Shown one piece after another: positions 32,191 to 47,754 of a stretch of 50,585 bases of DNA. The translations under genes and the position numbers were made by a program. Origin of the DNA: Gammaproteobacteria bacterium (GTDB taxonomy: Bacteria; Pseudomonadota; Gammaproteobacteria; Steroidobacterales; Steroidobacteraceae); contig PMMB01000273.1 of the NCBI GenBank assembly GCA_003165495.1, positions 1 through 50,585 on the forward strand, read 5' to 3'. Within the stretch, counting starts at the first letter, position 1. Every line of letters starts with the position of its first letter. The notes beneath the pieces are model-generated. The model saw only the letters and a list, made by a program, of their open reading frames with translations. It had not been told where the DNA came from and made no database searches.

Positions 32191-32535
32191 CTACGTCGAC
32201 CAATGCCAACCGTTGTTAACCATGGCTTTGACGCAGTCCTTTGGTAAGTATGTCATCCAATCGGCAATTTTCGCAGTTGCGCGCGCCGTCGCGATGGCGT
32301 TTTGGTTGATACTCCCCGTCGGTGCCGCGCTGGTGTCGACGCCCAATTCTTGTAAAAGCACTGAGAAGTTTCGGAATTGTCCAGTCTCGCGCTTTTGCGA
32401 TTGATCATTCGCGGGAGCGGCGTGCGCCGTACTTTGACTCTTTGCGCCATTGCACTCCAACGGCGCGGACTTGAACAAAGGCTGCAAGTGCAACGCCGTG
32501 ATAAGGTTGTCTTTCCCCCGTGCATTAGTCATCAT
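32191..32535 (-). CDS. Conserved 114-aa hypothetical protein, paralog B (C-terminal WMTYLPKDCVKAMVNNGWHWST)
   Basis: GGAGA RBS 6 nt upstream of the ATG. Paralog of 25925-26269. Confidence 0.7.
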   Translation of the reverse strand: MMTNARGKDNLITALHLQPLFKSAPLECNGAKSQSTAHAAPANDQSQKRETGQFRNFSVLLQELGVDTSAAPTGSINQNAIATARATAKIADWMTYLPKDCVKAMVNNGWHWST

Positions 32536-32606
32536 GGCTGTCTCCAGATATGAAACGGCAACATATCGCGCCGGCGGTCGAACGGCAGCGTGCGTAGTAG
32601 CGACCG

Positions 32607-32765
32607 CTAAATGCGCCCCGTGAGAACCAAAATCAATACGCCAACGAGTACGAGCCGTAGTGTGCCGCTCGGGTAGTACCCCCAGGACCTGCTATGAGGC
32701 CACGTTGGAAAAGCGCCAACCAGCATTAGCAAGAGAATAATCAAGAGTACCGTGCCCAATGACAT
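32607..32765 (-). CDS. DUF3309-family small membrane protein (52 aa)
   Basis: MSLGTVLLIILLLMLVGAFPTWPHSRSWGYYPSGTLRLVLVGVLILVLTGRI. A strong RBS (TAAGGAGA) precedes ATG 32765. The ORF-track version is extended at the N-terminus. Confidence 0.75.
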   Translation of the reverse strand: MSLGTVLLIILLLMLVGAFPTWPHSRSWGYYPSGTLRLVLVGVLILVLTGRI

Positions 32766-33268
32766 TTCGGTCTCCTTAGCGCTTCGAAAATCCCAGTCAA
32801 ACGGATTATCCAGCGCGTCGAAACTTTGATTCGAGTCCAATCGCCTGTCGAGCTAATTATCTACGACGGATCTGCTTCGTCGATAAGTGGATTCACTTAC
32901 CCGCACGGGTATTGGTGCAGTTGCAAGCGAGCAGCAATATCGGCAGCAAATGCATAGACGGTTTCTACCCCCAAACGCGCGCGTTGAAGGCACGCATCGA
33001 CCCTGGCCAATCTGCGGCAAATACATACGGAGTGTCGGACAGCCCAGAGCGCATCGCAGTGCTCGATCGGGCAAAATAAATTCGTCATTAGTAGGACGCA
33101 ACAAATGACCACCACAGGCACGCGTACCCCCGATCGATCGAGTCCTTCGGTCGGCAGTTGGCAGCGGAATTGGCGAGTCTCGCTTCGCAGACGAAGATTG
33201 GCTCCAAGCGTCGAATTCTCCTGCCCGGTGACGGAGCCAGCGTCGTGTCTGAAATCGAGGACACTTAT

Positions 33269-33799
33269 ATGTTGATCAAAGAAATGACTAGGGAAGCGAG
33301 CATTGATCTACTGGCGCGTACACACTTGTGCAGGTTGGCATGCGCCCACGAAGGGCAGCCCTATATCACCCCGATACACTGCGTCTATGACGACAACTAC
33401 CTATATGGTTTCTCGACGTTGGGACAAAAAATTACCTGGATGCGGACGAATCCCCTTGTATGCGCCCTCGCCGAGGAATTGATCAGTCCGCAAGATTGGG
33501 CCTCTGTGATTGTTTTTGGCAAATATGAAGAGTTGCCCGACATGGGGCCGTACGCAATGCATCGGCAACACGCCTATGACCTACTTCAAAGGCGCGCCAT
33601 GTGGTGGGAACCGGGTTATGCGGAGACGGTGCTCCGCGGAAAAGCACGTCCATTGCAATTCCTCTATTTTCGGATTCACATCGAACAAATCAGCGGTCAC
33701 CGCGGCGTCCCGGATTCGATTGCTGAACCAGAGCATTCTGTTGCGCAGCAGAAAAGGCGTGGTTGGATCCACAAAGTGTTCGGACGCCCAGAACAGTAA
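33269..33799 (+). CDS. Pyridoxamine 5'-phosphate oxidase-family (split-barrel flavin-binding) protein
   Basis: MLIKEMTREASIDLLARTHLCRLACAHEGQPYITPIHCVYDDNYLYGFS..ASVIVFGKYEELPD is typical of the COG3467/PNPOx-like family. Confidence 0.75.
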   Translation: MLIKEMTREASIDLLARTHLCRLACAHEGQPYITPIHCVYDDNYLYGFSTLGQKITWMRTNPLVCALAEELISPQDWASVIVFGKYEELPDMGPYAMHRQHAYDLLQRRAMWWEPGYAETVLRGKARPLQFLYFRIHIEQISGHRGVPDSIAEPEHSVAQQKRRGWIHKVFGRPEQ

Positions 33800-33906
33800 A
33801 GCGGCGCATATGCGTTGCTCGGTAGCGGGCGCGCGAATGGCTCCAGGACCCCCTAATTGCGTTAGATTTTCGGTGAGTATCGGGCGAGAACCATTGACGA
33901 GGCGAT

Positions 33907-34482
33907 CTACCAATATCGGACCCGACCGGTGTCGACGTGCACGAAATCGGAACCGGCGTAAAAGCCCACGCCGCCGCGAGACAATGAGCGAGCGTACTCG
34001 CTCAACTTACGCGTCGAATAACCGCTCAGTCGGACATCGATTGCCCTCCCGAGTATGTGTTGACTGTGCTCGGCCACACCGCTGGAATTGTGATGCAGCA
34101 TCGCATTGGTCTGCGGCGAACGGTACCCTGAGATGACTTCGAAGGGTGCGTCATGATCTGCGAGAGACTGCAGGTCAAATAGGATGTCCAACAGAGGAGG
34201 GTCGATCTGATGGCTCTCGCCCGTGCGAAAGTCTCGCAGCAAAAAATTGACGTTGCGCAAACACGCGTCGCTGTAAACGCCGCCAACAAAATACGGAGCC
34301 GTGAGCGTCTCACCTGTGTGCGTGTGCACAAACCGTAAAGTACGCGGCCGATCTGAAGCTGTGGCAAAGACGGGTAAGGCGGTCATGGAGCCTAAAACAC
34401 CGCACAGGGCACCGGCCCCAGCCAAGAACCCGCGTCGACCCAGACGGAGGGCGGCTTCTGGTCGGTCTTTGTGTTTAGACAT
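33907..34482 (-). CDS. mepK: Tat-exported DUF882/peptidase M15A family murein endopeptidase (YcbK/MepK-like)
   Basis: Twin-arginine signal (LGRRGFLAGAGAL). Motifs SGYRSPQTNAML, HSQHILGRAIDV, GGVGFY..FVHVDTG. Confidence 0.8.
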   Translation of the reverse strand: MSKHKDRPEAALRLGRRGFLAGAGALCGVLGSMTALPVFATASDRPRTLRFVHTHTGETLTAPYFVGGVYSDACLRNVNFLLRDFRTGESHQIDPPLLDILFDLQSLADHDAPFEVISGYRSPQTNAMLHHNSSGVAEHSQHILGRAIDVRLSGYSTRKLSEYARSLSRGGVGFYAGSDFVHVDTGRVRYW

Positions 34483-34516
34483 CGTGGCACTCTCCAGCTT
34501 GGGTGACGATCATAGC

Positions 34517-36250
34517 CTAGCGTGCTGCTGCGGCGCTGTTAACTGGTCGAAGGCTCAGCAATGCCTCGAGTTTGCGGTCATGGCCGTAGATATCGTCGAA
34601 GAATTGCACCGGGCCGGCTTCGGTCGCCATGGCCGTTCCATACAAAATCATTACACGAATAGGTTCGCGCAACTCAACTCGCAGGGATTTAGTATCATGC
34701 ATCGCAGCATCGATTTGCGTGCGGTCCCAAGGCGCGCCGGCATTGCGCAAGACATAGGCCGCCAGCGCTGTGGGATCGCTGACACGGATGCAGCCGTGAC
34801 TGAACGCGCGTCGCGACGCCAAGAACAGCTGATGAGCGGGAGTGGAATGCATGTAAACATTGTGCGTGTTGGGAAATAAGAACTTGATCAATCCCAACGC
34901 GTTATCATCGCCCGGTCTCTGACGTAGCCGCAGCTGGCCGGCCGCCAACGCCGCGATTGTCTCCGGCGTAGGTTGCATGACCGCTGCATCATCGCTCTCA
35001 CCTTGAACGATTTCCAAGTGATTCCGTTGCAGATAGTCCGAGTGAGCACGGATCGCCGGCAGCATTTCATGTACGGTGATGCTGCGCGGTATATCCCAGT
35101 ACGGCCTAAAAATCACGTACTTCAAGTCGCCGACGAAAATTGGGGTACGCTTGCTCGGGTAGGTTTGTCCCACGATCACCGGCATTTGTAGAATACTTGC
35201 GACCCGATCGGCAGTCGTGTCGAATGCAAACAACCGGAACTCCGGAATATTGACGATAATCGGTGGAGCGTCGAAGGCGGGCAGCCATCGCCAGCGCTCG
35301 AGCGTCAACTCGATTTGGCGCACGCGCTGGGCCATGGGTGTGGTAAGCGCGGCAAAGGTGCTGGCACCTAGGGTCCCGTCGGCAGTCAGGCCATGCCGAT
35401 CCTGAAAGTGCTTGAGCGCTTCAACCACCGCAGCATCCAGGGTCTGACTCGCATCGGCCACATCGCCGCCAGGCTCCGACAGGTCACCTTCCGCCACTAG
35501 CAATTTGCGCAGGGCCGGCGCCCCCACATAGGCATCTCCCACGTGAAGCGTGCGCTTTCCAAAGCTCGGCACTTGCGTTAACTCGGGATCTGCGGCTAGG
35601 ACGCGATAGTGGAAAAGCGCGGCCTTGAGCAAAGAGTAGTGGTAGAAACGTGGCTCCGTACGGGTGACAGCGTCGCCCACACTAACGGCGGCGGCGAGTG
35701 CCGCAACTGTCGCCGCAATGTCCAGATCGTTACGTGATTCGGTGAGTTCGAAGCCGGCCGCCCGCGGATCGATGCGACCATAATGCAAATGGCTGATAAG
35801 ACGGACGGCAGCTCGGGTGAGCAAAACATCGAATTGGGCGCTGTCTGTATCCGAAGACATACTGCCCAACTGACCGGCAGCGGCGGTGAGGCGATCCGCA
35901 GCATAGTCGCTCGGCGCGAGTCCAAACGCATCAGCGGCGTGCAAGATTTTGACGAGATCACGCGCTTGTTCCGAGATCTGACCATGTGTGCTCCACAGTA
36001 GCGTCGCCCCGACGCGATCATAGACGGAGCGAACCAGCGCCACTTCGCCCCGCACGGCAATGCTAGGCGAAACGTTCGTATTCAGCTCCTGTAACGCAGC
36101 GCCGAGCGGCGCAGACGGTACATCGCCGCCACCCACAGTCGCAGCGTGTAATGGCGGGACGTTGTTAAGCAGGAGTATGGCCAAGCCCATCATCCTAACG
36201 ATGGCTCGCAAACCCCTAAAACGCAGTGCGCAAACCGTCGTGCCGGTCAT
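34517..36250 (-). CDS. ldtD: L,D-transpeptidase, YcbB/LdtD family
   Basis: Peptidoglycan-binding domain (VVEALKHFQDRHGLTADGTLG). YkuD catalytic domain with HSTPAHQLF..SHGCIRVSDP. It sits next to mepK, as in E. coli ycbB-ycbK. Confidence 0.85.
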   Translation of the reverse strand: MTGTTVCALRFRGLRAIVRMMGLAILLLNNVPPLHAATVGGGDVPSAPLGAALQELNTNVSPSIAVRGEVALVRSVYDRVGATLLWSTHGQISEQARDLVKILHAADAFGLAPSDYAADRLTAAAGQLGSMSSDTDSAQFDVLLTRAAVRLISHLHYGRIDPRAAGFELTESRNDLDIAATVAALAAAVSVGDAVTRTEPRFYHYSLLKAALFHYRVLAADPELTQVPSFGKRTLHVGDAYVGAPALRKLLVAEGDLSEPGGDVADASQTLDAAVVEALKHFQDRHGLTADGTLGASTFAALTTPMAQRVRQIELTLERWRWLPAFDAPPIIVNIPEFRLFAFDTTADRVASILQMPVIVGQTYPSKRTPIFVGDLKYVIFRPYWDIPRSITVHEMLPAIRAHSDYLQRNHLEIVQGESDDAAVMQPTPETIAALAAGQLRLRQRPGDDNALGLIKFLFPNTHNVYMHSTPAHQLFLASRRAFSHGCIRVSDPTALAAYVLRNAGAPWDRTQIDAAMHDTKSLRVELREPIRVMILYGTAMATEAGPVQFFDDIYGHDRKLEALLSLRPVNSAAAAR

Positions 36251-36819
36251 GCCACTGGCAACGGTCGTAATTTCTCGAACTCACTACACTGCATTACCGT
36301 GTGACTCCAGATCTGCCTGATCGGCAGGCGATGAACGCGTGCCGTGGGCAGGGCACGCACTGACCTGCTGAATAGCTCATCGAATGTGGCAAGCGCGCCC
36401 TTGCGGGACGATCAACCGCGGAATCTAGTAGTGCCAGATTCATGACCGATCCCACTAGAATTGATTGCGAAGTGTCATCCATAGTAAGCACGTGGCGGGC
36501 GGGTCGATATAAGGGACGAACCCGCCAGATCGTACGGGGCCATGCCGGGCCCAGTGCTTGAGCGCTTCAACCACCGCGGCATGCGGATGAGTGGCAATCT
36601 CGGTCGTCGCTTTAGCATGATCGCTGTCACAGACGTAGACGAGTCGCGGCGTTGGGGTTAGTCCCGCTACCCGTCGGCTGCAGCGCACGCTAGACTGGTC
36701 TCGCCAATAGAGGCGCGAAACCATGCCATAACAGCGCGTCGATGGATGGGCGCGACGACTGTGCGCCGGCGAGATCGGGCGACCGGACAATCGAGATAGC
36801 ACCATCAATCGGGGGACGG

Positions 36820-37755
36820 TCAGAACGGAATGGCTTGTGCATCATCGGAAGGCCTTACGATAAGAATGTCGCATGGCAACGATTCGAGGATGGTTGCCGC
36901 GGTACTCCCGACAATCATCCGGTGCCACCTGCCGTGCGACGACGCACCCATCACCATCACGTCGGTGCGATATTTCGTCACCGTGTCCATCAAGCAATCC
37001 TCGGGTGTGCCCATTTCCACGTGAAGATGTGCTTGGGTCACACCGTGTGCGCTTACCAGGCCCTCGATCTGGTGATATCTGAACGAATTCTCAACTTCTA
37101 CTGCCTCCGAATATTCACGTGTCATGATTTGACCGCCCGCCGCAACGACCGCGGCAAACGCGACCGGAATGAAGGTGTGAATAACATGCAAATCGGCGTT
37201 TAGGGGACCCGCTAGCGACGCGGCACTGGACAAAATATCACGATCCAATGCCGCGGCCCTTTCATTCGTTTGATTGGGGTCGACTGCAGCCATGATGACA
37301 GGTGGCCGCTGCCACGCTTTCTTCTTCGTCAACAACAGAGGCACAGGGCACCCTCGCGTCAAATGCCAATCGGTGTTCCTTAGAAGGGTTCGCTTGGCAA
37401 GCGAGTGATGATGGGTGTCCTTGACAACCAGGTCGGCATTCGAGCCGCGAAGATAGTCCAATAGCGAGTCGTGCAAAGACTTGCCATAGATAGTTCGCAC
37501 AGTGACCTCAGTCTTTAGTGCGCGTATAGGGGCCGCCAAGGCTTCGAGCAGATCCAGAAGTTGAGTGTTTGAAGGTGGCGTTTTGTGAGCGCGCAGAGTG
37601 ACAACGTCGTCATCGACAGCCGATTCAATATCACAGATCAGCAATTCAATTGAGGCACCGAGGCGCTGGGCCAACAATCCGGCTTTGTCGACGGCAGATT
37701 GCGGGGCGCTCGCCGTTGGATCCACGACAACCAAGATGTGGTTGATTCGATTCAT
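36820..37755 (-). CDS. Universal stress protein, tandem USP domains (UspE-like), paralog 1
   Basis: 311 aa with two USP domains. Highly similar to 42446-43381 (VVKDTHHHSLAKRTLLRNTDWHLTRGCPVPLLLTKK). Confidence 0.9.
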   Translation of the reverse strand: MNRINHILVVVDPTASAPQSAVDKAGLLAQRLGASIELLICDIESAVDDDVVTLRAHKTPPSNTQLLDLLEALAAPIRALKTEVTVRTIYGKSLHDSLLDYLRGSNADLVVKDTHHHSLAKRTLLRNTDWHLTRGCPVPLLLTKKKAWQRPPVIMAAVDPNQTNERAAALDRDILSSAASLAGPLNADLHVIHTFIPVAFAAVVAAGGQIMTREYSEAVEVENSFRYHQIEGLVSAHGVTQAHLHVEMGTPEDCLMDTVTKYRTDVMVMGASSHGRWHRMIVGSTAATILESLPCDILIVRPSDDAQAIPF

Positions 37756-38092
37756 ACAGTGTCCTTCGCCGGTAGATTCAATTTAATTGGCGATGACGCA
37801 GCCGTGCCGTATTGTCTTCACCTAGCTCGGGACCCTCAAGCCGTGACCAATGATCTGCCACGCGCGTGTCCACGAGTGTTATCGGACGAATGTAATCATC
37901 GTACAAACCTGCTATTTCGCCCATAAGGGCTTGCGCGTAGTGGGGCTCGGCCACTACGCAGGTTGGGCTAACGAGTTCAACGTCACGTGACGCGAATCCG
38001 CTCTGGGGGAGCAAGCGCGAGAGAAAACGCACCAACGCACGTTACAAAGTTAACCCTAGAGACACGGCACCGAATCTCCGTATCATCGGCCA

Positions 38093-38317
38093 ATGGAGGC
38101 TGCGAACACGGGACGGTCGGATCTGCGCAACAACATTGCGCGCCGCGCGATGCTGGAGCGCGGATTGTTGCCGGAGTTCTCCGCTGCGGCCTTGCGTCAG
38201 GCAGACTCCATTAGCGTGCCTGCCGCGACAACGGACCTTGATACTCGCGATCTGCGAGCAAGTTCCTCCCCCGCTAGGGTGTTAAGGATGCGGATCTCGC
38301 ACCCGCACCGGGACTGA
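38093..38317 (+). pseudogene. Probable N-terminal fragment of an RNB-family (RNase II-like) ribonuclease gene
   Basis: DLRNNIARRAMLERGLLPEFSAAALRQADSISVPA..TRDLR resembles, from memory, the N-terminus of ~430-aa proteobacterial RNB-domain ribonucleases. No RNB catalytic domain follows. Confidence 0.35.
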
Positions 38318-38436
38318 CCGCATCGAGCTACGCGAAATTCCCAATACAAGCCGGCGTCTCTTGACGTTCACAATCGCTGAATCACCGCGTCGATAGGGTG
38401 TCTGCCGAAGCGGAACGATCTCGAGAAGGACAAGCA

Positions 38437-39351
38437 ATGGCGGGCCATACATTTGAGCGGATTCTCATTGCCGTCGCCGACCCGTCGGTGGGCATGACCA
38501 AAGCGATACGCCGCGCGAGCGACTTGGCGCGCAAGACGGGTGCCAGCATTGAATTGTTCAATGCGATGCCATCGGCCATTTCTGAGGGAACAATGCACGC
38601 CGAAGCGGAACGGTTCACTCGTATTGCGGCGGAACAAAACCACCGTCGGCTCGAACGGACCGCGAACCGGCTGCGGCGCGAAGAGCTTATCGTCACTACG
38701 AACGTGCGGACGGGCTCTCCGATCCTTGAGGCGATTCTGCGTCAAGTTCGGCAGACTAAGGCGGACCTCCTGGTCATCGAGGCGCGCAAGCACAATGTCT
38801 TCGCCCGCTTGCTGCTCACTCAGACTGATTTTGAGCTCATCCGACGTTGTCCGGTTCCCCTATTGATTGTGAAGGGACGAGCGGCGTGGCGCAGCCCCCG
38901 TATCTTGGCGGCTCTGGATCCGTTTCATACCAACGACAAGCCGAGCGAACTAGACGGTGAAATCGTCAATGCGGCACGAGCCGTCGCGGCGGTAGTTCGC
39001 GGCTCCGTGCATGCCGCGCATATTTACCGCTCGCTCGTGACGTATTTTCCCGGCGTGCCGATCGGTGCAACGGTGCGCGCAGCGATTCCTGCGCAGGAAA
39101 ACACCTATAAGGTCGGGGTCCGACGACGATTTTACGAAGCCCTCAGCCGATATGGAATTGCCAAAAACAAGTCGCGCCTGATTTGTGGCGATCCTGCGAT
39201 CGAACTGCCGGCTCTCGCGCGCTCCATGAGGGCTGGACTCGTTGTCATGGGGGCGATATCCCGCTCCCGGTTGAAGCGGATTTTTATCGGCAGCACCGCC
39301 GAGCATGTGCTCGATAGCCTACACTGCGACCTTCTAGTGGTGAAAGGGTAG
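38437..39351 (+). CDS. Universal stress protein, tandem USP domains, paralog 2 (more divergent)
   Basis: MAGHTFERILIAVADPS start preceded by GAAGGA. Two USP domains with a C-terminal GAISRSRLKRIFIGSTAEHVL. Confidence 0.9.
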   Translation: MAGHTFERILIAVADPSVGMTKAIRRASDLARKTGASIELFNAMPSAISEGTMHAEAERFTRIAAEQNHRRLERTANRLRREELIVTTNVRTGSPILEAILRQVRQTKADLLVIEARKHNVFARLLLTQTDFELIRRCPVPLLIVKGRAAWRSPRILAALDPFHTNDKPSELDGEIVNAARAVAAVVRGSVHAAHIYRSLVTYFPGVPIGATVRAAIPAQENTYKVGVRRRFYEALSRYGIAKNKSRLICGDPAIELPALARSMRAGLVVMGAISRSRLKRIFIGSTAEHVLDSLHCDLLVVKG

Positions 39352-39354
39352 CGC

Positions 39355-39605
39355 CAAAGTCCGTCCGTAATATCGAGCGACTCGTAGAACCAATGATTGG
39401 AACTCGTGGCACCGCGGCTGCGGATGTCACCGGCGAATCCCAAGTACATGCCGATGTGGCAGGCGGATGGCTGAAGTCCAGTAATCGCTCGCGCCCACTC
39501 GGTTTCGCGCGCCGACGCGGGTAGTAGTTGCGTGATCGTATTGCGAGCTCCCACATCAGAGAACACGAGCGGACAGTGTTCCTCCGTGCCGTTCTTCCAG
39601 CATGT
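39355..39605 (-). pseudogene. Internal fragment of a phytoene-desaturase-like NAD(P)/FAD-dependent oxidoreductase (COG1233-type)
   Basis: WKNGTEEHCPLVFSDVGARNTITQLLP..PSACHIGMYLGFAGD..NHWFY matches the central region of that family. A stop codon bounds it immediately upstream, and it lacks both the N-terminal FAD motif and the C-terminus. Confidence 0.4.
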
Positions 39606-39896
39606 TCATGCCGCGCGTGCGAAGCGACCGACCCCTTCCCGTGCCGAGCGGATGCGCCAAACTCGGTTTAATCAGCCAGTTCGTTGAAATTCCGGATGAT
39701 TTGGTGTTTACCGTCGAGTATTCGGTTCGACCGGCACAAACGGCCGTTTATCAGTTACTGAATATCTCGCGTGAGATTCCGACGATTACGCCACACGACA
39801 AATCATGGGTCACTCAATTGGATGCGGTGCTCAAGGCGTTTGCGTAGAATCGCAGTTGCACGATCAATCCTCCCGCCGAACTGCTTAAAGAGGTGC

Positions 39897-40328
39897 CTAT
39901 GTCGCCGGCTGAGCACGCGGGACACTGACTCCGAAATGCGCACGTACTTTGGCGATGATCTGTGGATCTGTCATTTTATCCTCGGTCTCCACGGCCGCGA
40001 CTCTTGGTCCACGCTTCCCCCTCAGCAACCGCTTATGCAGTTCGCCTTTGGCCTCGCCGGGGCCAAAGAGCAGCACGCTCTGGCAGTCGCAAAGCGCGGC
40101 GATCACGGCGTCGTAGTAGATATTGAGTTCCCCCGTCAGCCCTCGTTGGCGTCTGTCGTCAGCTGGCACTTGACCCGATTCATAGGGGCCTCTTAACGGA
40201 GAGTCACCACCCCGTTCTAAGTGCTTCTCAGCGTTTGAGAGGATATGTGCGATGTGTTCACCGTCGGCGGTGAGCGTCACGATCACAGAGTGGCGGTGAT
40301 CGATCCAGATGCCGGCTTTACTACTCAT
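39897..40328 (-). CDS. Stand-alone eRF1 middle-domain-like (baeRF/host-attachment-like) protein with an RGGD loop
   Basis: 143 aa, with GGAG 9 nt upstream of the ATG. By eye it aligns to the eRF1 M domain: KAGIWIDHRHSVIVTL / KHLERGGDSPLRG / SVLLFGPGEAKGELHKRL against human KFGFIVIDGSGALFGTL / KKHGRGGQSALRF / GLVLAGSADFKTELSQ. Confidence 0.5.
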   Translation of the reverse strand: MSSKAGIWIDHRHSVIVTLTADGEHIAHILSNAEKHLERGGDSPLRGPYESGQVPADDRRQRGLTGELNIYYDAVIAALCDCQSVLLFGPGEAKGELHKRLLRGKRGPRVAAVETEDKMTDPQIIAKVRAHFGVSVPRAQPAT

Positions 40329-40790
40329 CTGATTTTCTCCGTGCTGGGTGAAGGGTTGCCACAGAACATCCGGGGCCTCTAGCGGAACCTAGACGCCAGG
40401 GTAGGCTGGCGCGACGCGGCATGCGAATCTCAAGCCTGAGCCACTCGCCGTCCGCCTTCCGCAAGGGCCTGATCGGTAGCTGGCCCGGGTCATTGTAGGG
40501 CAACAGTGCCTGTTGTGCGCCGTCCTGGCCAATCACCTGACGAAAGTAACCTTGGCAGTACAGCAGCCCGATGCCCACGACCGGCACCCCGAGATCGCTC
40601 GCCGCCTTGAGCTGATCCCCCGCGACATTGCCGAGGCCACCGGCGTAGATCGGCAATGCCTCGCTCAACGTTCAAGTATGCTCCACAGCTGATCGGTAGC
40701 GTGGTTCCAGGACCAGCGCAGATCCAAAGCCAGCTCGCGTAAGAGCGCGACTCCCGAGTCGGTGTTCGATACGGTGGCGCTCGCAGTCAT
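40321..40790 (-). pseudogene. glgP: Alpha-glucan (glycogen) phosphorylase gene remnant with an internal deletion, a frameshift and 3' truncation
   Basis: From ATG 40790 (GGAG RBS) it reads MTASATVSNTDSGVALLRELALDLRWSWNHATDQLWSILER-stop, the DUF3417-type N-terminus. In the next frame comes LSEALPIYAGGLGNVAGDQLKAASDLGVPVVGIGLLYCQGYFRQ. About 700 aa of the normal protein are missing. Confidence 0.7.
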
Positions 40791-40853
40791 GATAGTGGCT
40801 CCGTGGCGTCGTTGATCGTGGTCGACGAAGCGGGATCTACCGACGGGTAAGTG

Positions 40854-41207
40854 TCATGATTGGAGCCGTACCATGCGCGCCGCTCCGGACCGATCGTGCT
40901 GAAGCTCTTGCAACTGCCGCTTGGCATTATTGAAGGCGTCTCGCAAGGCAAGGTATATATCCTTGTGTCCTGCACCATCGACATGGAGACTGTCGGCATG
41001 GATCTGCGCACCGGGGACGATTAGGTCAATCTTGACTAGATAGGGCGCTCGAGTGTCGCTGCGGGTATCCGGGCCTTCGAGCGTTATATGACAGTGCGTG
41101 ATCCGCTCGTTATAGCACTCCAACCTAGACCCCAATTTCCGCGCTCGATCCTCGAGGGCGCCCGAGCGATCAAAGTGGCGGAATGATAACGTGATGGGCG
41201 GTCGCAT
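40854..41207 (-). CDS. hpf: HPF/RaiA-family ribosome hibernation/translation-inhibition factor
   Basis: MRPPITLSFRHFDRSGALEDRARKLGSRLECYNERITHCHITLEGP..YLVKIDLIVPGAQIHA..KDIYLALRDAFNNAKRQL follows the S30AE/HPF pattern. I placed the start at internal ATG 41207. Confidence 0.75.
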   Translation of the reverse strand: MRPPITLSFRHFDRSGALEDRARKLGSRLECYNERITHCHITLEGPDTRSDTRAPYLVKIDLIVPGAQIHADSLHVDGAGHKDIYLALRDAFNNAKRQLQELQHDRSGAARMVRLQS

Positions 41208-41363
41208 GGTCGGGTACCGATAAATGTCCTGTATGGCAATTATCGGCAATCACCGTCTCAGGTTACATCAGGGATTCCCGACCGGCGATGCGTAGAGCCC
41301 GCTGGCGCTCGACGGTATGCACGTACCGGCCAAGCCGACAGCTAAACTCAAGCAATCGGGCGC

Positions 41364-41579
41364 CTAAGCTTTATCGGTCAGCGTCAGGTGCAACTTCACC
41401 AGATGAGCCACCGAACGCGCGCCCATCTTTTCCATGACCTTGGCTCGATGGATTTCGACGGTGCGTTCGATCAAGTTCAAATCGATCGAGATTACTTTAT
41501 TCGCGGCACCATCGACGACCATATCCATGACCCGTCGTTCGCGAGGCGTCAGAGAACTGGAACGGGTGCATTCGTCCAA
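41364..41579 (-). pseudogene. FixJ/NarL-type LuxR HTH domain without a receiver domain (truncated response regulator, or a stand-alone HTH)
   Basis: LTPRERRVMDMVVDGAANKVISIDLNLIERTVEIHRAKVMEKMGARSVAHLVKL resembles the FixJ C-terminal domain. No REC-coding sequence lies upstream. Confidence 0.55.
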
Positions 41580-41686
41580 TTACTGGACAAGCTCAGTAGT
41601 ATCGCTAATTGGATAAGCATAACCCCGGATAACTCTCGGCGGCTTATTGCACGACACTTAAGCCCGAGTATCGAACAATCGCCTAG

Positions 41687-42415
41687 GTGATCATTGTGAT
41701 GGCAGGCATCAGCGCGCCGTGTACCGGAGTTCTCGTCGCGATCGCCGCCGTATTCGCGATGATGAGTGGTGAGGCGCGCGCGTCAGAAGAGGCCGTCGAT
41801 CGAGCGACGCAAACGGCGCTGTCGCTCGATGCGCATCCAGATCGCGGCGCCTCGCAATTCAACCACTATTGCGCACGATGTCACGGTTCCCACGCCGAAG
41901 GCAATGCGAACCGTTCAATTCCGGCATTGGCGCGCCAGCGCTTTGCTTATCTCGTCCGGCAACTAGCTAATTTTTCGGGCTTCGAGCGCGACAGCAATAG
42001 CATGCACGGCGTTCTATCGCAGATCGAGTTGCGAGGACCGCAAACGTGGGTCGACATCGCTGCCTTTTTGAACAGAGTATCCTTCGTCAATCGCGCGCAG
42101 ACCGGTGACGGCACGCATGTGGCGCTTGGCCGGGGCATTTTCCACGAGCAGTGCGCGAGCTGTCATCGCATCGACGCACACGGCGATGGGGACGGTTTTG
42201 TGCCATCACTCCGAAATCAACACTACAGCTACTTGGTCAACCAAATGCATAAGCTGGGCGAGGGTCGTCGGCACAACGTCGATGAGGATCTCGTGCGCTT
42301 TTTACATAGCTTTGACGAGCAGGACATGAATGCGACCGCAGACTACCTATCGCGCCTGCGCGGTCCGGGCGCGGTGCACAAAGTGATGCGCAACGATGGC
42401 GTCGTGGTTGACTAA
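41687..42415 (+). CDS. Diheme c-type cytochrome (c4-like), copy 2
   Basis: Signal peptide and two heme motifs (CARCH, CASCH). Shares the QHYSYLVNQM / ADYLSRL motifs with copy 1. A USP gene follows 30 nt downstream with an AAGGAG RBS. Confidence 0.85.
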   Translation: MIIVMAGISAPCTGVLVAIAAVFAMMSGEARASEEAVDRATQTALSLDAHPDRGASQFNHYCARCHGSHAEGNANRSIPALARQRFAYLVRQLANFSGFERDSNSMHGVLSQIELRGPQTWVDIAAFLNRVSFVNRAQTGDGTHVALGRGIFHEQCASCHRIDAHGDGDGFVPSLRNQHYSYLVNQMHKLGEGRRHNVDEDLVRFLHSFDEQDMNATADYLSRLRGPGAVHKVMRNDGVVVD

Positions 42416-42445
42416 ATCATCCGAGCGACCAAGGAGAACATAGCT

Positions 42446-43381
42446 ATGGATCGAATTACAGATATCCTGGTGATCGTGAACCCCTTGGTCAGAGATCAGT
42501 CAGCCATTGCAAAAGCAGCGACACTGGCCAGGTGGCTTGGCGCAGGCATCGAACTCCTCATTTGTGACACTCAGTCCTCACGGGAAGCGCACACGGAGGG
42601 GGGGTTGCCGGAGCTCAGCAATGCGTTGCTCAGCGACAATTTGGATTCCCTGCTGGAGCAACTGGCCGAGCCGCTGCGCGATGACGGTATCGATGTCACA
42701 ACGCAGATTATCAGCGGCGATCCGCTGCATGAAACCGTCATTTCCTGGATGCGCAACTCGCCCGCGGATCTGGTCATCAAGGATACGCATCACCACTCGC
42801 TCGCCAAACGCACATTCGCGACCAATACCGATTGGCACTTGATACGAGCCTGTCCGGTACCTCTGTTGCTGACCAAACCGCGACTCTGGGGGACGCCGCC
42901 GGTGCTGATGGCGGCCGTGGACCCCGGCCATGTGAATGATCCGTCGGCGGCACTGGACCACCGCATTTTGGATGTGACAGTCTCGCTCGCGAATCGATTC
43001 GATGCGCAGGTATACGCGGTTCACTCGTATCTACCCTCGACGATAGCCACAGCGGCAGTCGGGGGTATGCCTCCCATGATTGGCGTGTCTGCAGAGGCAC
43101 TCGCAGCGGAGAGAGAATTTAGACGCTTACAGATCAAGCAATTAACTGATGAATACGGAGTCGCCGATGCAAACCTTCACGTCGACGCGGGTAGCGCCGC
43201 GGAGTACCTGCCGTGGATGGCTGCGGAATGGCGTGTGGACATTCTCGCCATGGGCGCCATCGCACGCAGCGGTTTGAAACGCGTGTTGATCGGCAGCACG
43301 GCGGAGCGCGTCTTGGAAACGCTCCCCTGCGATGCGCTCGTGGTTAAGTCGCCGGATTTCTCGCAGAATCTTCTCTTCTGA
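42446..43381 (+). CDS. Universal stress protein, tandem USP domains, paralog 3
   Basis: 311 aa, MDRITDILVIVNP start, VIKDTHHHSLAKRTFATNTDWHLIRACPVPLLLTKP. Close paralog of 36820-37755. Confidence 0.9.
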   Translation: MDRITDILVIVNPLVRDQSAIAKAATLARWLGAGIELLICDTQSSREAHTEGGLPELSNALLSDNLDSLLEQLAEPLRDDGIDVTTQIISGDPLHETVISWMRNSPADLVIKDTHHHSLAKRTFATNTDWHLIRACPVPLLLTKPRLWGTPPVLMAAVDPGHVNDPSAALDHRILDVTVSLANRFDAQVYAVHSYLPSTIATAAVGGMPPMIGVSAEALAAEREFRRLQIKQLTDEYGVADANLHVDAGSAAEYLPWMAAEWRVDILAMGAIARSGLKRVLIGSTAERVLETLPCDALVVKSPDFSQNLLF

Positions 43382-43394
43382 CGGGTTTTCTGGC

Positions 43395-43667
43395 GAGCTG
43401 CCCCACATCCACTATCCCATCGTTCCAGGGCACGAAATTGTTGGCATTGTGGAGGCGTTGGGTCCCAGTCCCGGCACGTTGACCATTGGGCAGCGGGTGG
43501 GGATACCTTGGCTGGGGAGAACCTGCGGGCATTGCGAGTACTGCATGTCGGATCGCGAGAATCTCTGCGACGCACCGACATTTACCGGAGATGACCGGGA
43601 TGGAGGGTTTGTGGATGACCTGCGTACTGGTTGCATTCAGGGGGCGGACGTTCTGGTGATGCGGTGA
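43395..43667 (+). pseudogene. Zn-alcohol dehydrogenase remnant (paralog of 3484-4470) lacking the first ~47 codons and the whole Rossmann domain
   Basis: GELPHIHYPIVPGHEIVGIVEALGP..GQRVGIPWLGRTCGHCEYCMSDRENLCDAPTFTGDDRDGGF is joined directly to DLRTGCIQGADVLVMR. That equals residues ~47-120 plus the last 16 of the intact ADH. Nucleotide identity to 3618-3840 is about 85%. Confidence 0.8.
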
Positions 43668-43675
43668 CGATGAAG

Positions 43676-43748
43676 CGCCGGGCATGATTTCCGTGGCAGC
43701 CGTCCAGTTCATTGTGTTGTGGCGGCTTGCGGAGAAACATGCCCGGCG
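43676..43748. terminator. Long stem-loop: perfect 11-bp inverted repeat CGCCGGGCATG / CATGCCCGGCG with a 51-nt loop, between convergent genes
   Basis: Read from the sequence. It fills most of the 99-nt gap between the ADH remnant stop and the BON copy 2 stop. There is no U-tract, so terminator function is uncertain. Confidence 0.3.
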
Positions 43749-43766
43749 AGACCATCAACCGTATTG

Positions 43767-44429
43767 TTATTGAATCACCAGACGATTTTCGACCTTGGCG
43801 ACACCCGGTGCGGCCCACGCAGCGTAAGCGGCATCCGCATGCTCCTGCCATGTGTGGACATGTCCTTTCAGGGTGACAGTAGAGCTATCTACCCTCACCT
43901 CAATGTCCTTGGCGTCAAGGAGCGCGTGTCGCTTAAAGGCCTCTTCGATCTTTTGCTTCACATCCGCTACCTTGACCGTGGAAGCGACCACGATGTCGTT
44001 GATGACCCCTTTCACGCCCATCAGATTGCGCATCGTATTTTCCGCAGCATTCCTCTGAAACCCCCACTGCACCTTCCCACTGAGCGTTACCCAGCCGTCG
44101 ACGACGACCGGTTTGATCTGTGCGGCGCCCGTTACCACATGCCATCGCAGTGCATTGGCCGCGGCCTCCGCAATCTCCGTGTCGCCGCGCGCGCCTGAGA
44201 GAGGAATCTTGACTTGAATCTCGTTCGCGATCGCCCTCACGCCGCTCACTCGCTTGGCGATATCCTCGGCCGCCCATTTACCTCCGAAATGGCAAACCTC
44301 TCCCGTCAGCGTCACGACTCCATCGTTGACGATGACACCAATCTTCTTGTCATCTACGCTGGGATCCCACTGCAACTCGGATTCCACATCACGCCGAATC
44401 TCGGTATCAGTTTTCATACTCGTCTCCAT
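43767..44429 (-). CDS. Triple BON-domain protein (OsmY-like), copy 2
   Basis: METSMKTDTEIRRDVESELQWDPSVDD.. is collinear with copy 1. The start is ATG 44429 or, more likely, 44417, which has GGAG 8 nt upstream. The ORF-track N-terminal extension is not conserved. Confidence 0.9.
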   Translation of the reverse strand: METSMKTDTEIRRDVESELQWDPSVDDKKIGVIVNDGVVTLTGEVCHFGGKWAAEDIAKRVSGVRAIANEIQVKIPLSGARGDTEIAEAAANALRWHVVTGAAQIKPVVVDGWVTLSGKVQWGFQRNAAENTMRNLMGVKGVINDIVVASTVKVADVKQKIEEAFKRHALLDAKDIEVRVDSSTVTLKGHVHTWQEHADAAYAAWAAPGVAKVENRLVIQ

Positions 44430-44991
44430 GGATGGTTCACACTCTCGTTCCTCGCAATATCCATCACTCGTTTTCTGTCGGCCACCACCCCACCATTCAT
44501 GATCTCGGTTTGTGCTCATCGTTGGGGTCCGCCCAGATTTCGCGTATTTCATATGCGCCTATGCCTTCACACAGCGAATACTGAGACGAGTAGAGCACAC
44601 GAACCATTCGTGATTTCCGCTATGGAATTGCTTATTTCACCTAGACCGCCACGGCGCGCTTCTAAGTTCTTCTATGCGGGTAACAACATCGCTACTGTCC
44701 GGGGATCTCTCATGGCATAGGCTGCGGAGTGTCAAGGATAATTACGCAATTGAGTTGAACTCGGATTGCGGGTTCCCACCTAGTTTACGTATCACTCGCG
44801 CTGCACCTTCCAAACCCCGGAGGTAAACTCGTTCAAAGACAGGGTAGAATCCCGTCGAAGCGCATTACGTTCTCGCCTGATGGATGGTGCTTGATCTTTT
44901 CGTCAAGATTAGTCATCGAATCAATCGAATTCTCACTTGAGCGCCTCCGACATCTATCGGCTCGCGTACGATCCCGCTGATAGGACGAGTG

Positions 44992-45912
44992 ATGCAAAAT
45001 AGAAAGTCGACTCGCGTAGTACGCACGACGTCTCACCGACAATCGTCGGGTGGGGGAGCTGCCCCTGAAGTAACAGTCACCATTGCTTTGCGTCAGTACA
45101 TCCAGCGCCTGCAGCGATCGCTAGATCGGACGCTAGTAGAACTGTCGCGAGCGGTCACGCCGGATACGGTGCATAGAACGCGCACTGCTGCGCGTCGATT
45201 GCGGGCGGTTCTATGCGCCTTCAGACGAGGATTGAATCCTGCCGCGCTCCATCGCTACGCTGCCGCGTTGCAGAAGTTGGCACATGACCTCGATGCGATG
45301 AGGGAGGCGGACGTCGCGCAAGAAGCCATCTCAATCCTGTCGCAAGAGCATGCCGGACAGGGCCGCGATCGAATGAATGGATTGAAATCTGCGGTTGTGC
45401 GAAACAGATCTCAGGCGGTTTGCGCTTTGCAATCGGCGATAGGGGCCGACCCATGGACCGCGCGCCTCGTGAAGTTGCGATATGTCGCGTCAGACCCTAG
45501 TTTGATCGTTGAATCACAAGAGCCGATGAGTTCGATGACGCAGCGTGTCTTGAAGCGTCGTCGCCGACGCCTCCGTGCGGCACTTCGTTATCGTGGTCAC
45601 GCATCGCGACGGTTGCATAAGCTTAGGCTGAAAATCAAGACGCTGCGGTACTTGTTGGAGCAGTGCGAATCGACCTATTCCGGCGCGGTGTGCGCGGAGG
45701 TCAAGCAATTACGCGAGCTGCAGGACTGCCTGGGAGATCTTCACGACGCATGGTGCTTGAGACGCGTGCTCAAGCGCCACTGGCGTTATCCCCGCGCGAC
45801 GACTGAACTGTCATCGGACATCGAAACTCGCCAAACGGAGCTCTTTCACAACTTCCGGAAGCACCGCAAGGAACTGCGGCGACTATGGCGCGCCGCGAGG
45901 AATACGGAATAG
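44992..45912 (+). CDS. CHAD domain protein (polyphosphate-granule associated family)
   Basis: Helical, basic protein with CHAD-type repeats (VHRTRTAARRLRAVL..., LHKLRLKIKTLRYLLE). Confidence 0.7.
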   Translation: MQNRKSTRVVRTTSHRQSSGGGAAPEVTVTIALRQYIQRLQRSLDRTLVELSRAVTPDTVHRTRTAARRLRAVLCAFRRGLNPAALHRYAAALQKLAHDLDAMREADVAQEAISILSQEHAGQGRDRMNGLKSAVVRNRSQAVCALQSAIGADPWTARLVKLRYVASDPSLIVESQEPMSSMTQRVLKRRRRRLRAALRYRGHASRRLHKLRLKIKTLRYLLEQCESTYSGAVCAEVKQLRELQDCLGDLHDAWCLRRVLKRHWRYPRATTELSSDIETRQTELFHNFRKHRKELRRLWRAARNTE

Positions 45913-45957
45913 ATGCCTTACGGGAAGACTGTGAGGCGCGTCGCAAGCGAGCTTCGC

Positions 45958-46713
45958 CTATTTCACCCTGAAGATCCCCGTGATCTTCAAGGTCGCCGGG
46001 TCGAACACCGCCAGCAAAGGGTACCCTCGTCCAGTCAGTGGCATCGAATTGGGCTGGTCCGTGACCACTCCCGCCGCACGCATGCGTTCCTTAAGTATCC
46101 TTTTGTCGGCGACCGAGAAGTACCCCACATCGTCTACCTTCTTCAGTTGCATTCGAAGCGCCGGCAAGCCCTGCTCCCAGCGCTTGAAATATCGCGGCAT
46201 CGATATGACATCGTCGCCTCCGCTCACGGCCGACGCCATGATCTTCCGGCGTTCGCGTGAGTCCAGCGGCAGCGGCGCCCAAATCCACCGCGGCAAGCTG
46301 TACCAATGCGGCACGAATTCTGCGTTCTGCCGGCGGGCGAGAGCCAACTCATCTGCGTCGATATCGTAAGCCTGAACAAGCTGTAGCACACTCTCGGAAA
46401 ACGCGTAATAGAGCGGCCGTCCATGCCAGATGGATACCGAGCCGTAGATCAGCGCAAAGAGTTGGACAGTAACGATCATCGCGATATCGCGCGCGAGTTC
46501 ACGCCGCGGTTTGCTCGAACGCGCGATAATGAAAGTGAGCAGGGGGCCGACAACGACATCAACTCCGGCCATCACGAAGACCACTTGCGAGACATCGGCC
46601 AGGTGCCAGCCCGGCCAGCGATACCATCCAAGATAGAGACTGCCGAATATGAGCGTGAGCGCGGCGGCGCTCGCGAGCAGATGCAGTCCGAATGCCTTCA
46701 GTCTAAATTTCAT
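45958..46713 (-). CDS. Membrane protein resembling TfpX/TfpZ-type type IV pilin accessory proteins (no pilin gene nearby)
   Basis: N-terminal TM helices (LKAFGLHLLASAAALTLIFGSLYLGWY, VDVVVGPLLTFII, IVTVQLFALIYG) and a soluble C-terminal domain. The resemblance to TfpZ is from memory only. Confidence 0.4.
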   Translation of the reverse strand: MKFRLKAFGLHLLASAAALTLIFGSLYLGWYRWPGWHLADVSQVVFVMAGVDVVVGPLLTFIIARSSKPRRELARDIAMIVTVQLFALIYGSVSIWHGRPLYYAFSESVLQLVQAYDIDADELALARRQNAEFVPHWYSLPRWIWAPLPLDSRERRKIMASAVSGGDDVISMPRYFKRWEQGLPALRMQLKKVDDVGYFSVADKRILKERMRAAGVVTDQPNSMPLTGRGYPLLAVFDPATLKITGIFRVK

Positions 46714-46869
46714 ATCTATATTGTCCACAAACTTACGGGCAATTATAGTTCGCGGAGCGGCCGGGTAGAAAATTTGCAAAGTCCGTCACAATGCCCGATG
46801 GGTTTCATCGTGAACCTCAATAATTCACGGAAGTTTCGGCGGCCGAGGTGCGTGGCGACCGGCATTCGG

Positions 46870-47592
46870 TCACGGTACGGAGATGCTGCGCCGGTAGCCC
46901 TTTGCTGCTGCCGGGGGCGCGGCCGCGTGATGCCACACGCGAAATCCGCCAAGGAACGCGAAGTCATTATTGCCGAGGCGCGCGTTTTTCGGCATTCGCT
47001 TCAACTTGCGCGCATTGCCGCCGCCAATGACGACATAGTCGGCTTCCAGCACGGTGCTCAGCTGCGCCACGACTTCGTTGACAGTCCGACACCATTTCTT
47101 GCCGCCCAGCCGTTTGAGACCGCGCTCGCCGACGTACTCCTCGTAGGTGCGTCCCTTTTTATACGGCAGATGCGCAAGCTCCATCGGCGCAACGACGCCA
47201 TCAACGATCATTGCGGAGCCAAGTCCCGTTCCAAGGCCGAGAAACAGCATTCGACCGCCTTCGTAACTGCCGACCGCTTGCATCGCCGCGTCGTTCATGA
47301 CGTGGGTCGGTCGGCCAAAGGCTTTGCGAAAGTCAAATCCAACCCAACCGGGCCCAAGATTGTGTGGCTCGGTAACCACTTTGCCGTGCAGCACTACTCC
47401 TGGATATCCGATGGAAACCGCGTCGTAGGTCCAGTCCCCGGTAAGTTCATGCACATGCGCGACCATTTGACGGGGCGTAAGATCCGGCCCCGATTCAAAT
47501 TGCCGCATCTCTTGACGGCCGAAAACGCGCGTCTTCACATGGCTTCCGCCGACGTCGATGGCGAGAACTCGCCTGTAGCGCTTTGGTTTCAT
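46870..47592 (-). CDS. ppgK: ROK-family kinase, polyphosphate/ATP glucokinase-like
   Basis: RVLAIDVGGSHVK, NDAAMQAVG and LGLGTGLGSAMIVDG motifs with PpgK-like size (240 aa). The start is ATG 47592. Confidence 0.7.
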   Translation of the reverse strand: MKPKRYRRVLAIDVGGSHVKTRVFGRQEMRQFESGPDLTPRQMVAHVHELTGDWTYDAVSIGYPGVVLHGKVVTEPHNLGPGWVGFDFRKAFGRPTHVMNDAAMQAVGSYEGGRMLFLGLGTGLGSAMIVDGVVAPMELAHLPYKKGRTYEEYVGERGLKRLGGKKWCRTVNEVVAQLSTVLEADYVVIGGGNARKLKRMPKNARLGNNDFAFLGGFRVWHHAAAPPAAAKGYRRSISVP

Positions 47593-47754
47593 ATTCCCGA
47601 AACAATACCTCAATCCCACCCCGCACGCTGCGAACTCCGGAATCCTTAGATTACTGCCTGTGTGAAACTCATACCGATGTCAAATATACTCGGCCTTTCC
47701 TGACGACGTTACCTGACTAAGCTCATGCAGAATGGTTGTGGCGGCCAAGCGACT

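Follow-up and report, generated by a model that had tools for sequence, protein, structure and literature searches.

What can a single release-factor domain do in a bacterium when it stands alone and is encoded close to a ribosome hibernation factor? This question is raised by a small gene in a stretch of 50,585 nucleotides from a gammaproteobacterium of the Steroidobacteraceae (assembly GCA_003165495.1, contig PMMB01000273.1), which is called the window below. The gene (39897-40328, minus strand) encodes a protein of 143 amino acids (aa) that resembles the middle (M) domain of the release factors eRF1 and aRF1. The analysis places the protein in the superfamily of this domain and leads to the proposal that it may be a minimal, non-catalytic factor that binds ribosomes under stress.

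Ribosome hibernation is a field of current research, and two publications frame the question. Burroughs & Aravind (2019; PMC6514570) defined a clade of bacterial aeRF-1 proteins (baeRF-1) and predicted families that consist of the core domain only. Helena-Bueno et al. (2024; PMC10901736) located Balon, Rv2629 and Msmeg1130 in the ribosomal A site by cryo-electron microscopy, together with RaiA. For these three-domain relatives the remark of the first-pass annotation that such proteins have not been characterised biochemically is therefore out of date. The hypothesis of that annotation, i.e., a stand-alone protein with a link to HPF that blocks the A site without catalysis, restates a published prediction, which is already contained in the 2019 paper.

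Fold and homology of the 143-residue protein

The gene is an intact open reading frame (ORF) with an ATG start codon. A Shine-Dalgarno sequence, GGAGAA (40335-40340, minus strand), was read from the sequence, and its GGAG ends 8 nt before the ATG, so that the intact gene with a ribosome-binding site described in the first pass was recovered. An AGGAG-type site is present at the equivalent position in most homologues. The identical protein, with the same gene arrangement, is encoded on five independent metagenome contigs, and the gene is under strong purifying selection (ratio of non-synonymous to synonymous substitution rates, dN/dS, 0.09-0.2 for the window gene versus its relatives).

The fold was predicted with AlphaFold from a 48-sequence alignment of close relatives and from a 102-sequence alignment of the family. 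The predicted local distance difference test (pLDDT) values were 77.8 and 84.0, respectively, with 93-96 in the core of the second model. The predicted topology is β1-3 (residues 3-30), a loop (31-56), α1 (57-78), β4 (82-89), α2 (93-103), β5 (110-115) and α3 (121-132); in both models β1-3 are three antiparallel strands and α1 is a helix of 22 residues. Foldseek searches of the PDB were performed with both models. With the first, the top 16 matches were aRF1, eRF1, Pelota or Dom34, and Balon appeared further down; with the second, the top 27 matches were aRF1, eRF1, Pelota, Dom34 or Balon. The E-values reached 5e-6, the template modelling scores normalised to the query were 0.5-0.6, and the matches included the isolated human M domain (2hst). 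Among the Balon structures, ribosome-bound Rv2629 (8v9k) was found with 1.3e-4, and 8v9l and 8v9j with 2-3e-3. In the viral model database BFVD the best matches were giant-virus eRF1 proteins, followed by generic RNase-H-fold proteins such as RuvC.

The sequence relationship was analysed by profile-profile alignment. An eRF1/aRF1 M-domain profile was assembled from 81 segments of viral and metagenome contigs, which had been found with a degenerate DNA pattern for GGQSAxRFAR; the human eRF1 segment was validated against the PDB first. The 102-sequence family profile aligned with these 81 M domains by local hhalign with P=1.7e-5 (probability 79%, 89 columns) and by global hhalign with P=1.6e-5 over 136 colinear columns. 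As controls, the reversed profile gave P=0.12, the best of 20 column shuffles 0.007, and the unrelated HPF family 0.06. Smaller eRF1 sets gave weaker values: six sequences P=0.021, and a single sequence E=0.39, which is not significant, with the alignment in the expected register. The match spans the entire 143 aa, and there is no N or C domain. The assignment as a stand-alone homologue of the eRF1 middle domain was thus borne out, by Foldseek with two models as well as by hhalign.

The alignment that had been made by eye stood in part. Two of its blocks, from IWIDH to RGGDS and the later LLFGPGEAKGEL, were reproduced by hhalign, which pairs IWIDH with IVIDG, RGGDS with RGGQS and LLFGPGEAKGEL with VLAGSADFKTEL (family and eRF1/aRF1, respectively). 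The helix register NIYYDAVIA/HNYVRKVAE was not reproduced against eRF1; a register like it appears against Pelota (2qi2).

The window protein had no Pfam or NCBIfam match at E<=1, and a single-sequence search of the PDB was empty. When the 102 members were scanned singly, the Pfam models matched most often were baeRF_family10 (nine members), eRF1_2 (eight) and baeRF_family5 (four), with weaker matches to baeRF_family2, 11 and 12. Everything was sub-threshold: E-values went down to 5.8e-4 with eRF1_2 and to 0.0017-0.0018 with baeRF families 5 and 10, the scores of about 14-19 bits compare with cut-offs of about 27, and none of the 102 members reached the gathering threshold of eRF1_2 (PF03464) or of baeRF_family2/5/10/11/12. 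In one member (P0156) the Pfam matches are colinear over about 100 residues. The protein is not a member of Host_attach (PF10116), to which a relationship had also been suggested: with the window protein this model gave no match at E<=1, and it is missing from the 25 families that the 102 members matched most often (E<=5). In the sequence-profile search of the PDB the best release-factor match was Pelota 2qi2 (E=0.05). The top of that search was FSP1/AIFM2 (E=1.4e-3), by a Rossmann-type GxGxxG beta-alpha-beta segment over FGPGEAK; as such folds never rank high in Foldseek, this match was taken to be local and to reflect convergence. Taken together, the predicted fold and the profile alignments show that the protein is a homologue of the middle domain of eRF1, aRF1, Pelota and Balon.

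The region that corresponds to the catalytic GGQ loop of eRF1 was analysed separately. The codons of the predicted flexible loop (residues 31-56) occupy 40161-40238 (minus strand) and include R39-G40-G41-D42 (40203-40214) as well as Q53; residues 35-47 read KHLERGGDSPLRG. The pLDDT of the loop is about 50-60 and falls below 50 at residues 39-44, so that a disordered loop is predicted for the isolated protein. By hhalign, R39-G40-G41-D42-S43 lies over R-G-G-Q-S of eRF1, with low column confidence. Among relatives with at least 66% identity, 111 of 120 have GD and 84 of 120 have GGD. The 48-sequence alignment of close relatives has invariant G41 and D42, and G40 varies (S, E, A or T). A second alignment comprised 123 sequences, the window protein and 122 diverse members (each E<1e-30 to the profile); here 23% have GD and 21% have GG, and GGQ is not found in any of them. 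Between S31 and the helix, 71% of the members have 24-25 residues, and the full range is 8 to 27.

The loss of the catalytic GGQ that had been noted in the first pass therefore holds for the window protein, which has GGD, and for all 123 aligned sequences. The placement of GGD at the GGQ position rests on the alignment of RGGDS with RGGQS, in columns of low confidence, and the motif is conserved in close relatives but not family-wide. The first-pass annotation had named a lack of conservation of the GGD loop among homologues as an argument against its own hypothesis; beyond the immediate subfamily this conservation is not found.

The sequences around the loop are conserved family-wide. They comprise GxWIDH (β1), SxVEK (end of β3), (P)ADDxRxR (start of the helix), YYDxV, FGPGEAKxEL (after β4) and ExxDKMT...Q (after β5). 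Of the 123 sequences, 72 have R60 and 102 have R62 at the start of the post-loop helix. A glutamine within seven residues of the helix start occurs in 57% of the diverse members and in most close relatives; in the window protein this residue is Q53, whose conservation within the close subfamily is 90% or more. An alignment anchored on the helix would put Q185 of eRF1 near residues 53-55, and not at D42. As judged from the aligned sequences, there is no family-wide catalytic motif under either alignment of the GGQ position.

Family, gene neighbourhood and spread

The protein belongs to a large family. A word-indexed search yielded 2,683 clusters at 90% identity, none of which has a Pfam domain and all of which are named 'hypothetical protein' in the source. 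In an exhaustive profile search of 1.84 billion representatives, 2,736 clusters (50% identity) reached E<=1e-3, and 1,371 of them had E<=1e-10. Nearly all family members listed stand alone and have 125-150 aa. The family is covered by no Pfam or NCBIfam model, and the fetched loci contained no three-domain relatives. The gene is carried by at least 590 species-representative genomes, and the best 80 genomes span at least 14 bacterial phyla, including Pseudomonadota, Desulfobacterota, Acidobacteriota, NC10, Gemmatimonadota, Planctomycetota, Lentisphaerota, Ignavibacteria, Bipolaricaulota, Actinomycetota, Cyanobacteriota and Bacteroidota. Members are also encoded on three cyanobacterial plasmids.

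Fusions are rare and were seen in three of 150 listed clusters (P0139, P0148 and P0179). Two have a C-terminal DUF2934 behind a low-complexity linker, and the third carries an AMPK-beta/CBM48 module for glycogen binding at its N terminus. In three loci (L015, L045 and L076), DUF2934 and CBM48 are also encoded by separate genes close to the family gene. By these fusions and nearby genes, the family may be connected with carbon-storage or energy status. Fusions of archaeal HPF to CBS/AMPK-gamma modules are described in the titles of recent papers.

The genomic context was analysed in 83 loci (80 genome loci and L001, L002 and L003) and the window. ORFs were called, clustered by all-against-all BLAST and named with Pfam; the counts of neighbour clusters include the window where it is a member. 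The most common neighbour was a sigma-54-dependent activator (Sigma54_activat, often with PAS; e.g., L075:1539-2318), which was found in 27 loci and in 11 cases lies upstream on the same strand within 3 kb. It was followed by HSP20 and tandem universal stress proteins (USPs; 14 loci each), a dihaem cytochrome c (12 loci), a triple-BON protein and a Crp/Fnr regulator (11 loci each), SPFH/band-7 proteins (eight loci), phosphoketolase (seven loci), and HPF, CHAD, PRC-barrel and single-BON proteins (six loci each). A sigma-54 promoter was considered and not accepted: -24/-12 matches upstream of the gene were found in four of 82 cases versus 2.35 expected, which is no enrichment.

HPF is encoded directly upstream of the family gene in the window and in L004, the locus most closely related to it, and at a distance of no more than 10 kb in L034, L045, L046 and L066. 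The other 75 genome loci have no HPF gene, nor do L002 and L003, the two cyanobacterial plasmids that were examined, and a hidden Markov model built from the HPFs of the family loci and from E. coli HPF and RaiA revealed no extra HPF genes in the loci. The genomic association with hpf expected in the first pass was thus seen in one gammaproteobacterial lineage, but not in 75 of the 80 other genomes. The HPF, USP, cytochrome c, triple-BON and CHAD neighbours come almost all from Gammaproteobacteria or Steroidobacteraceae-like genomes and form a common syntenic island, whereas the HSP20, single-BON and SPFH neighbours come from several phyla. This distribution indicates that the stress-gene context is moderately general, and that the adjacency to hpf is confined to one lineage. 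The gene sets around the family gene are similar in content to the DosR dormancy regulon of mycobacteria, to which the HPF-like Rv0079 and the Balon homologue Rv2629 belong. In L001 (the context of member P0012) and in the window (29348-45912), these sets contain USPs, HSP20, a CBS-domain protein, PFK, PPDK, an HPF paralogue, a PAS hybrid kinase, and GerE-type and Crp-type regulators.

In the window, the next intact gene upstream of the 143-aa gene on the same strand (40854-41207, minus strand) encodes a 117-aa paralogue of the HPF/RaiA hibernation factors. It matches Pfam Ribosomal_S30AE with 3.6e-10, above the gathering score, and the solved ribosome-bound HPF 9t0z over its full length with 2.4e-12; the NCBIfam equivalog cut-offs were not reached. 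The frame is also open from a TTG at 41249, which would make the ORF longer; on the sister contigs 117 aa are called. Between the two genes lies an N-terminal remnant of a glgP-type alpha-glucan phosphorylase (about 40321-40790, minus strand), which matches only positions 11-95 of 600 of TIGR02094 (1.4e-29) and is broken by a frameshift or stop. Its end lies just upstream of the ribosome-binding site of the 143-aa gene, and on the sister contigs it is represented by fragments of 41 and 111 aa. Two tandem USPs lie on the other side of the 143-aa gene, one of 311 aa (36820-37755, minus strand; Pfam Usp 2.5e-28, two stretches) and one of 317 aa (38398-39351, plus strand; 4.3e-34, two stretches). 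Beyond hpf follow a dihaem cytochrome c (41687-42415, plus strand; Cytochrom_C 1.7e-13) and a further tandem USP (42446-43381, plus strand; 6.3e-29), a pair that recurs in gammaproteobacterial relatives, and a triple-BON, OsmY-like protein (43767-44552, minus strand; BON 1.1e-43, three stretches). A CHAD protein and GerE-type and Crp-type regulators are also encoded around the gene. The neighbourhood first described, with HPF upstream on the same strand, a decayed glgP in between and three tandem USPs of about 310 aa around, was therefore found as such.

In the related locus L004 the HPF gene is about 90% identical in DNA, and the interval between hpf and the family gene differs from that of the window. 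The C-terminal tails of the two HPFs also differ, as a 1-nt indel shifts the frame (window about 40854-40890, minus strand, versus L004:2060-2156). The window HPF ends with ...AARMVRLQS, the L004 HPF is about 30 residues longer, and the S30AE domain is unaffected; the equivalent of the L004 tail is readable in another frame of the window (ORF 40787-41011). Further truncated remnants are an 81-aa MCRA/oleate-hydratase fragment (39602-39847, plus strand), a GerE-only ORF of 54-71 aa without receiver domain (41364-41579, minus strand) and a 111-aa ADH_N fragment (43332-43667, plus strand). The presence of several truncated remnants in the island, including that of glgP, suggests gene decay or rearrangement around intact stress genes. 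Past the CHAD gene, two ORFs of 115 aa (45913-46260, plus strand) and 408 aa (46423-47649, plus strand) had no Pfam match; on a sister contig the genes over the 408-aa stretch are called on the opposite strand, and one of them has a weak ROK match.

Regulatory elements were searched for as well. No Fnr/Crp box was found in the window, the promoters of the island share no 9-mer that could represent a common operator, and the interval from hpf to the 143-aa gene contains no sigma-70 consensus promoter and no convincing terminator. An RNA element in the 5' untranslated region was rejected, because synonymous sites are equally conserved over the whole gene and Rfam gave no match. PADLOC gave no match to a defence system.

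A subgroup of 134-aa proteins was informative for the spread of the family. It was found in 28 of the examined loci (L002, L015, L020, L022-L024, L026, L027, L030, L031, L037, L038, L041, L044, L047-L049, L051, L053, L054, L057, L061, L063, L065, L067 and L073-L075), in most of which the gene lies at about 10001-10405. The mean protein identity is 77% across at least eight phyla. Over the whole gene, codon identity at positions with the same residue is 0.6-0.8, and the median synonymous divergence (dS) is 0.46. As judged from these comparisons, the subgroup shows recent transfer between phyla. The DNA similarity extends from about 45 nt 5' of the start codon, at GTTAGGTGG, to about 35 nt 3' of the stop codon, at CCACCTAAC. 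GTTAGGTGG and CCACCTAAC are inverted repeats and fit the boundary consensus of integrons, G|TTRRRY / RYYYAAC. In addition, a direct repeat of about 87 nt brackets the gene in L057 (6990-7076 and 7507-7593) and in L038. Neither a canonical attC site nor a hairpin nor a nearby integrase could be shown, and recombinase genes are seldom near. An integron cassette was thus not confirmed, in spite of the boundary-like repeats. The window gene has no flanks of the GTTAGGTGG/CCACCTAAC type. A single gene that is kept in so different hosts probably acts on a universally conserved target.

Proposed function and rival explanations

The reading that we put forward, tentatively and at a little less than an even chance, is that the protein is a minimal, non-catalytic stress factor of about 15 kDa of the baeRF-1/Balon type, which would bind to the ribosome. 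The 143-aa gene would be expressed along with the stress island, and the protein would dock in the A site on its large-subunit side, in the manner of the eRF1, Pelota and Balon middle domains. The loop and the conserved sheet edge (GxWIDH, SxVEK, FGPGEAKxEL and ExxDKMT) would be oriented towards the peptidyl-transferase centre. The accommodation of tRNA would be blocked sterically and the peptidyl-tRNA would stay unhydrolysed, while HPF would occupy the decoding channel of the 30S subunit. Without N and C domains, the protein would not read the decoding centre and would need no delivery by EF-Tu. In favour of this reading are the homology to the M domains, the lack of GGQ with a loop of variable length, and the HPF and other stress-gene neighbours, which are of the kinds reported for Balon genes; the transfer of the 134-aa subgroup between so different hosts fits a universally conserved target. 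That it represents a new minimal class of hibernation or silencing factors, in which a lone M domain binds the A site of the large subunit or the peptidyl-transferase centre without decoding anchor or EF-Tu, is rather doubtful. Being self-sufficient, such a domain would move from phylum to phylum as a compact unit of one gene, about 0.5 kb long.

Several observations weigh against a ribosome-bound role. HPF was found within 10 kb in only five of the 80 other genomes, all of them Gammaproteobacteria or Steroidobacteraceae-like. The N and C domains, which give much of the anchoring in eRF1, Pelota and Balon, are both absent from the 143-aa protein. The loop is poorly conserved family-wide, and therefore a contact with the peptidyl-transferase centre cannot hang on one fixed motif. 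The protein is near-neutral (the median isoelectric point of the family is about 8), and its helix α1 has a net acidic charge (-1.25), whereas the post-GGQ helix of eRF1 is basic; overall, the analysis of charges was uninformative. Last, the profile-profile probability of 79% is moderate, and no Pfam model reaches its threshold.

The same fold could serve a job away from the ribosome, i.e., nucleic-acid binding or a nuclease activity, or a binding function in stress or carbon storage. Conserved acidic and polar residues lie at the C-terminal ends of β1, β3, β4 and β5 (D10/H11, E34, E92/E96 and D117), and by topology these are the catalytic positions of RNase-H-fold enzymes; RuvC and other RNase-H-fold proteins are second-tier Foldseek matches. 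However, D10 is the only invariant acidic residue of this set. The positions, which were derived from the topology, are otherwise conserved to 77-87% (E34, E92 and D117) and 89% (E96), less than the structural motif G89-P-G-x-A-K, and they align with equivalent, non-catalytic residues of eRF1/aRF1 (IVIDG and ADFKTEL, by hhalign and by eye). They therefore look inherited and not like a new active site. In both PDB searches aRF1, eRF1, Pelota, Dom34 and Balon rank above all nucleases, and the giant-virus eRF1 is at the top of the viral search. A role in carbon storage is suggested by the fusions to CBM48 (one member) and DUF2934 (two members) and by neighbours from sugar metabolism, namely the glgP remnant, phosphoketolase in seven loci, sucrose synthase on a Pseudanabaena plasmid, and PFK and PPDK in L001, but the fusions are confined to the three clusters mentioned above. 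The limitation of the HPF linkage to one lineage also fits a non-ribosomal job. On balance, we regard such a job as unlikely.

Two further explanations stay closer to translation. A catalytic, stand-alone factor that releases peptidyl-tRNA on stalled ribosomes or obstructed 50S subunits, similar to Vms1/ANKZF1 or ArfB, might use the loop glutamine Q53. It would agree with the frequent glutamine close to the helix start and with the helix-anchored placement of eRF1 Q185; the loop is also not unconstrained, because it has 24-25 residues in 71% of the members, and VLRF-1/Vms1-type release domains function without the classic GGQ (PMC6514570). Yet no glutamine position is conserved family-wide, some loops have 8-15 residues and neither Q nor GG, a GG-Q arrangement occurs nowhere in the family, and in the best profile alignment it is D42, not a glutamine, that falls on the glutamine of GGQ. 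Rescue genes such as rtcB, rqcH and ssrA show no linkage in the 83 loci, and catalysis of this type appears quite improbable. Even more so, we consider it highly improbable that the protein does not sit on the ribosome but regulates a translational GTPase (e.g., EF-Tu) or acts as its decoy, via the surface with which the eRF1/Pelota-type M domain contacts EF1-alpha/eRF3. FGPGEAKxEL is the most conserved part of the protein and aligns with GPGFAK of Pelota and GSADFK of eRF1, and the stable binding of EF-Tu(GTP)-type factors to Pelota/aeRF1 requires contacts of the middle domain (PMC10901736). However, no evidence was obtained that FGPGEAKxEL is the GTPase contact surface, a GTPase gene is linked to the family in no locus, and the main GTPase interface of the known factors is the C domain (PMC10901736), which the 143-aa protein lacks.

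The minimal ribosome-binding stress factor thus remains the proposal to be judged by its consequences. If ribosome binding is true, the protein would be the smallest silencing module derived from a release factor, and the middle domain alone would be enough for silencing. The family would then be a widespread hibernation factor that has been missed by annotation; it would help to explain dormancy in many bacteria of soils and sediments, and a family model for genome annotation would be warranted. If the protein does not bind to ribosomes, a release-factor middle domain has been reused for another purpose. In either case the family is large, strongly conserved and nameless in every annotation source checked, and the member in the window adjoins an HPF paralogue.

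Comparison with known systems

The general idea is already published, and the protein is a new member, possibly representing a new family, of the predicted kind. The core-only relatives predicted in 2019 have apparently not been studied experimentally, and no paper on a single-domain form was found in the literature searched. Balon is the structural precedent, which revealed that bacteria reuse the archaeal/eukaryotic release-factor scaffold for ribosome silencing (PMC10901736).

In PMC6514570, the features of the baeRF-1 clade include recurrent operon linkage with HPF, loss of the catalytic glutamine and a conserved arginine in the downstream helix. The loops of inactive baeRF-1 proteins are described there as poorly conserved and unconstrained in length, and the proteins are proposed to enter the A site and, perhaps along with HPF, to regulate negatively without catalysis. 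The window family shares with the predicted core-only kind the bacterial origin, the RNase-H-fold domain alone, the lost glutamine, the variable loop, the helix arginine, lateral transfer, an HPF link in some genomes and the predicted role as a non-catalytic A-site blocker. In contrast to the Pfam families baeRF 2/5/10/11/12 and eRF1_2, its members score below the thresholds of these models (best E 6e-4). The family is either one of the three core-only families of that paper, which has twelve numbered families, for which no usable model exists, or an additional one.

With the corresponding domains of eRF1/aRF1 (eRF1_2) and Pelota/Dom34 the protein shares the fold, an hhhhD-xxx-A hairpin and [DE]-x-K-K/H before the loop, and, likewise colinear, R-G-G-x-S and G-x-x-[DE]-[AF]-K-x-E-L after β4. 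Unlike eRF1/aRF1, it is stand-alone and bacterial, lacks GGQ and has an acidic instead of a basic post-loop helix.

A further comparison is that with Balon. Balon-type factors lack NIKS and GGQ and interact with EF-Tu. Balon is built of an N domain with an HP motif at the decoding centre, an M domain with a lasso loop and a bL27 trap, and a C domain with an EF-Tu-binding β-hairpin. The lasso loop shows little order without P-site tRNA, and for Pelota/aeRF1 it is the stable binding of EF-Tu(GTP)-type factors that requires the middle domain. Balon genes have been reported beside those for RaiA, Hsp20 and OsmY (all PMC10901736). The ribosome binding of Balon is experimental, whereas the window family is known from sequence and models. 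Unlike Balon with its three domains (about 360-375 aa), the window protein consists of the M domain only, in 143 aa. Like Balon, it belongs to a bacterial branch of the aeRF1 superfamily, has no GGQ, has an M domain that is matched by Foldseek, and is encoded in stress loci with RaiA/HPF, Hsp20 and OsmY/BON proteins.

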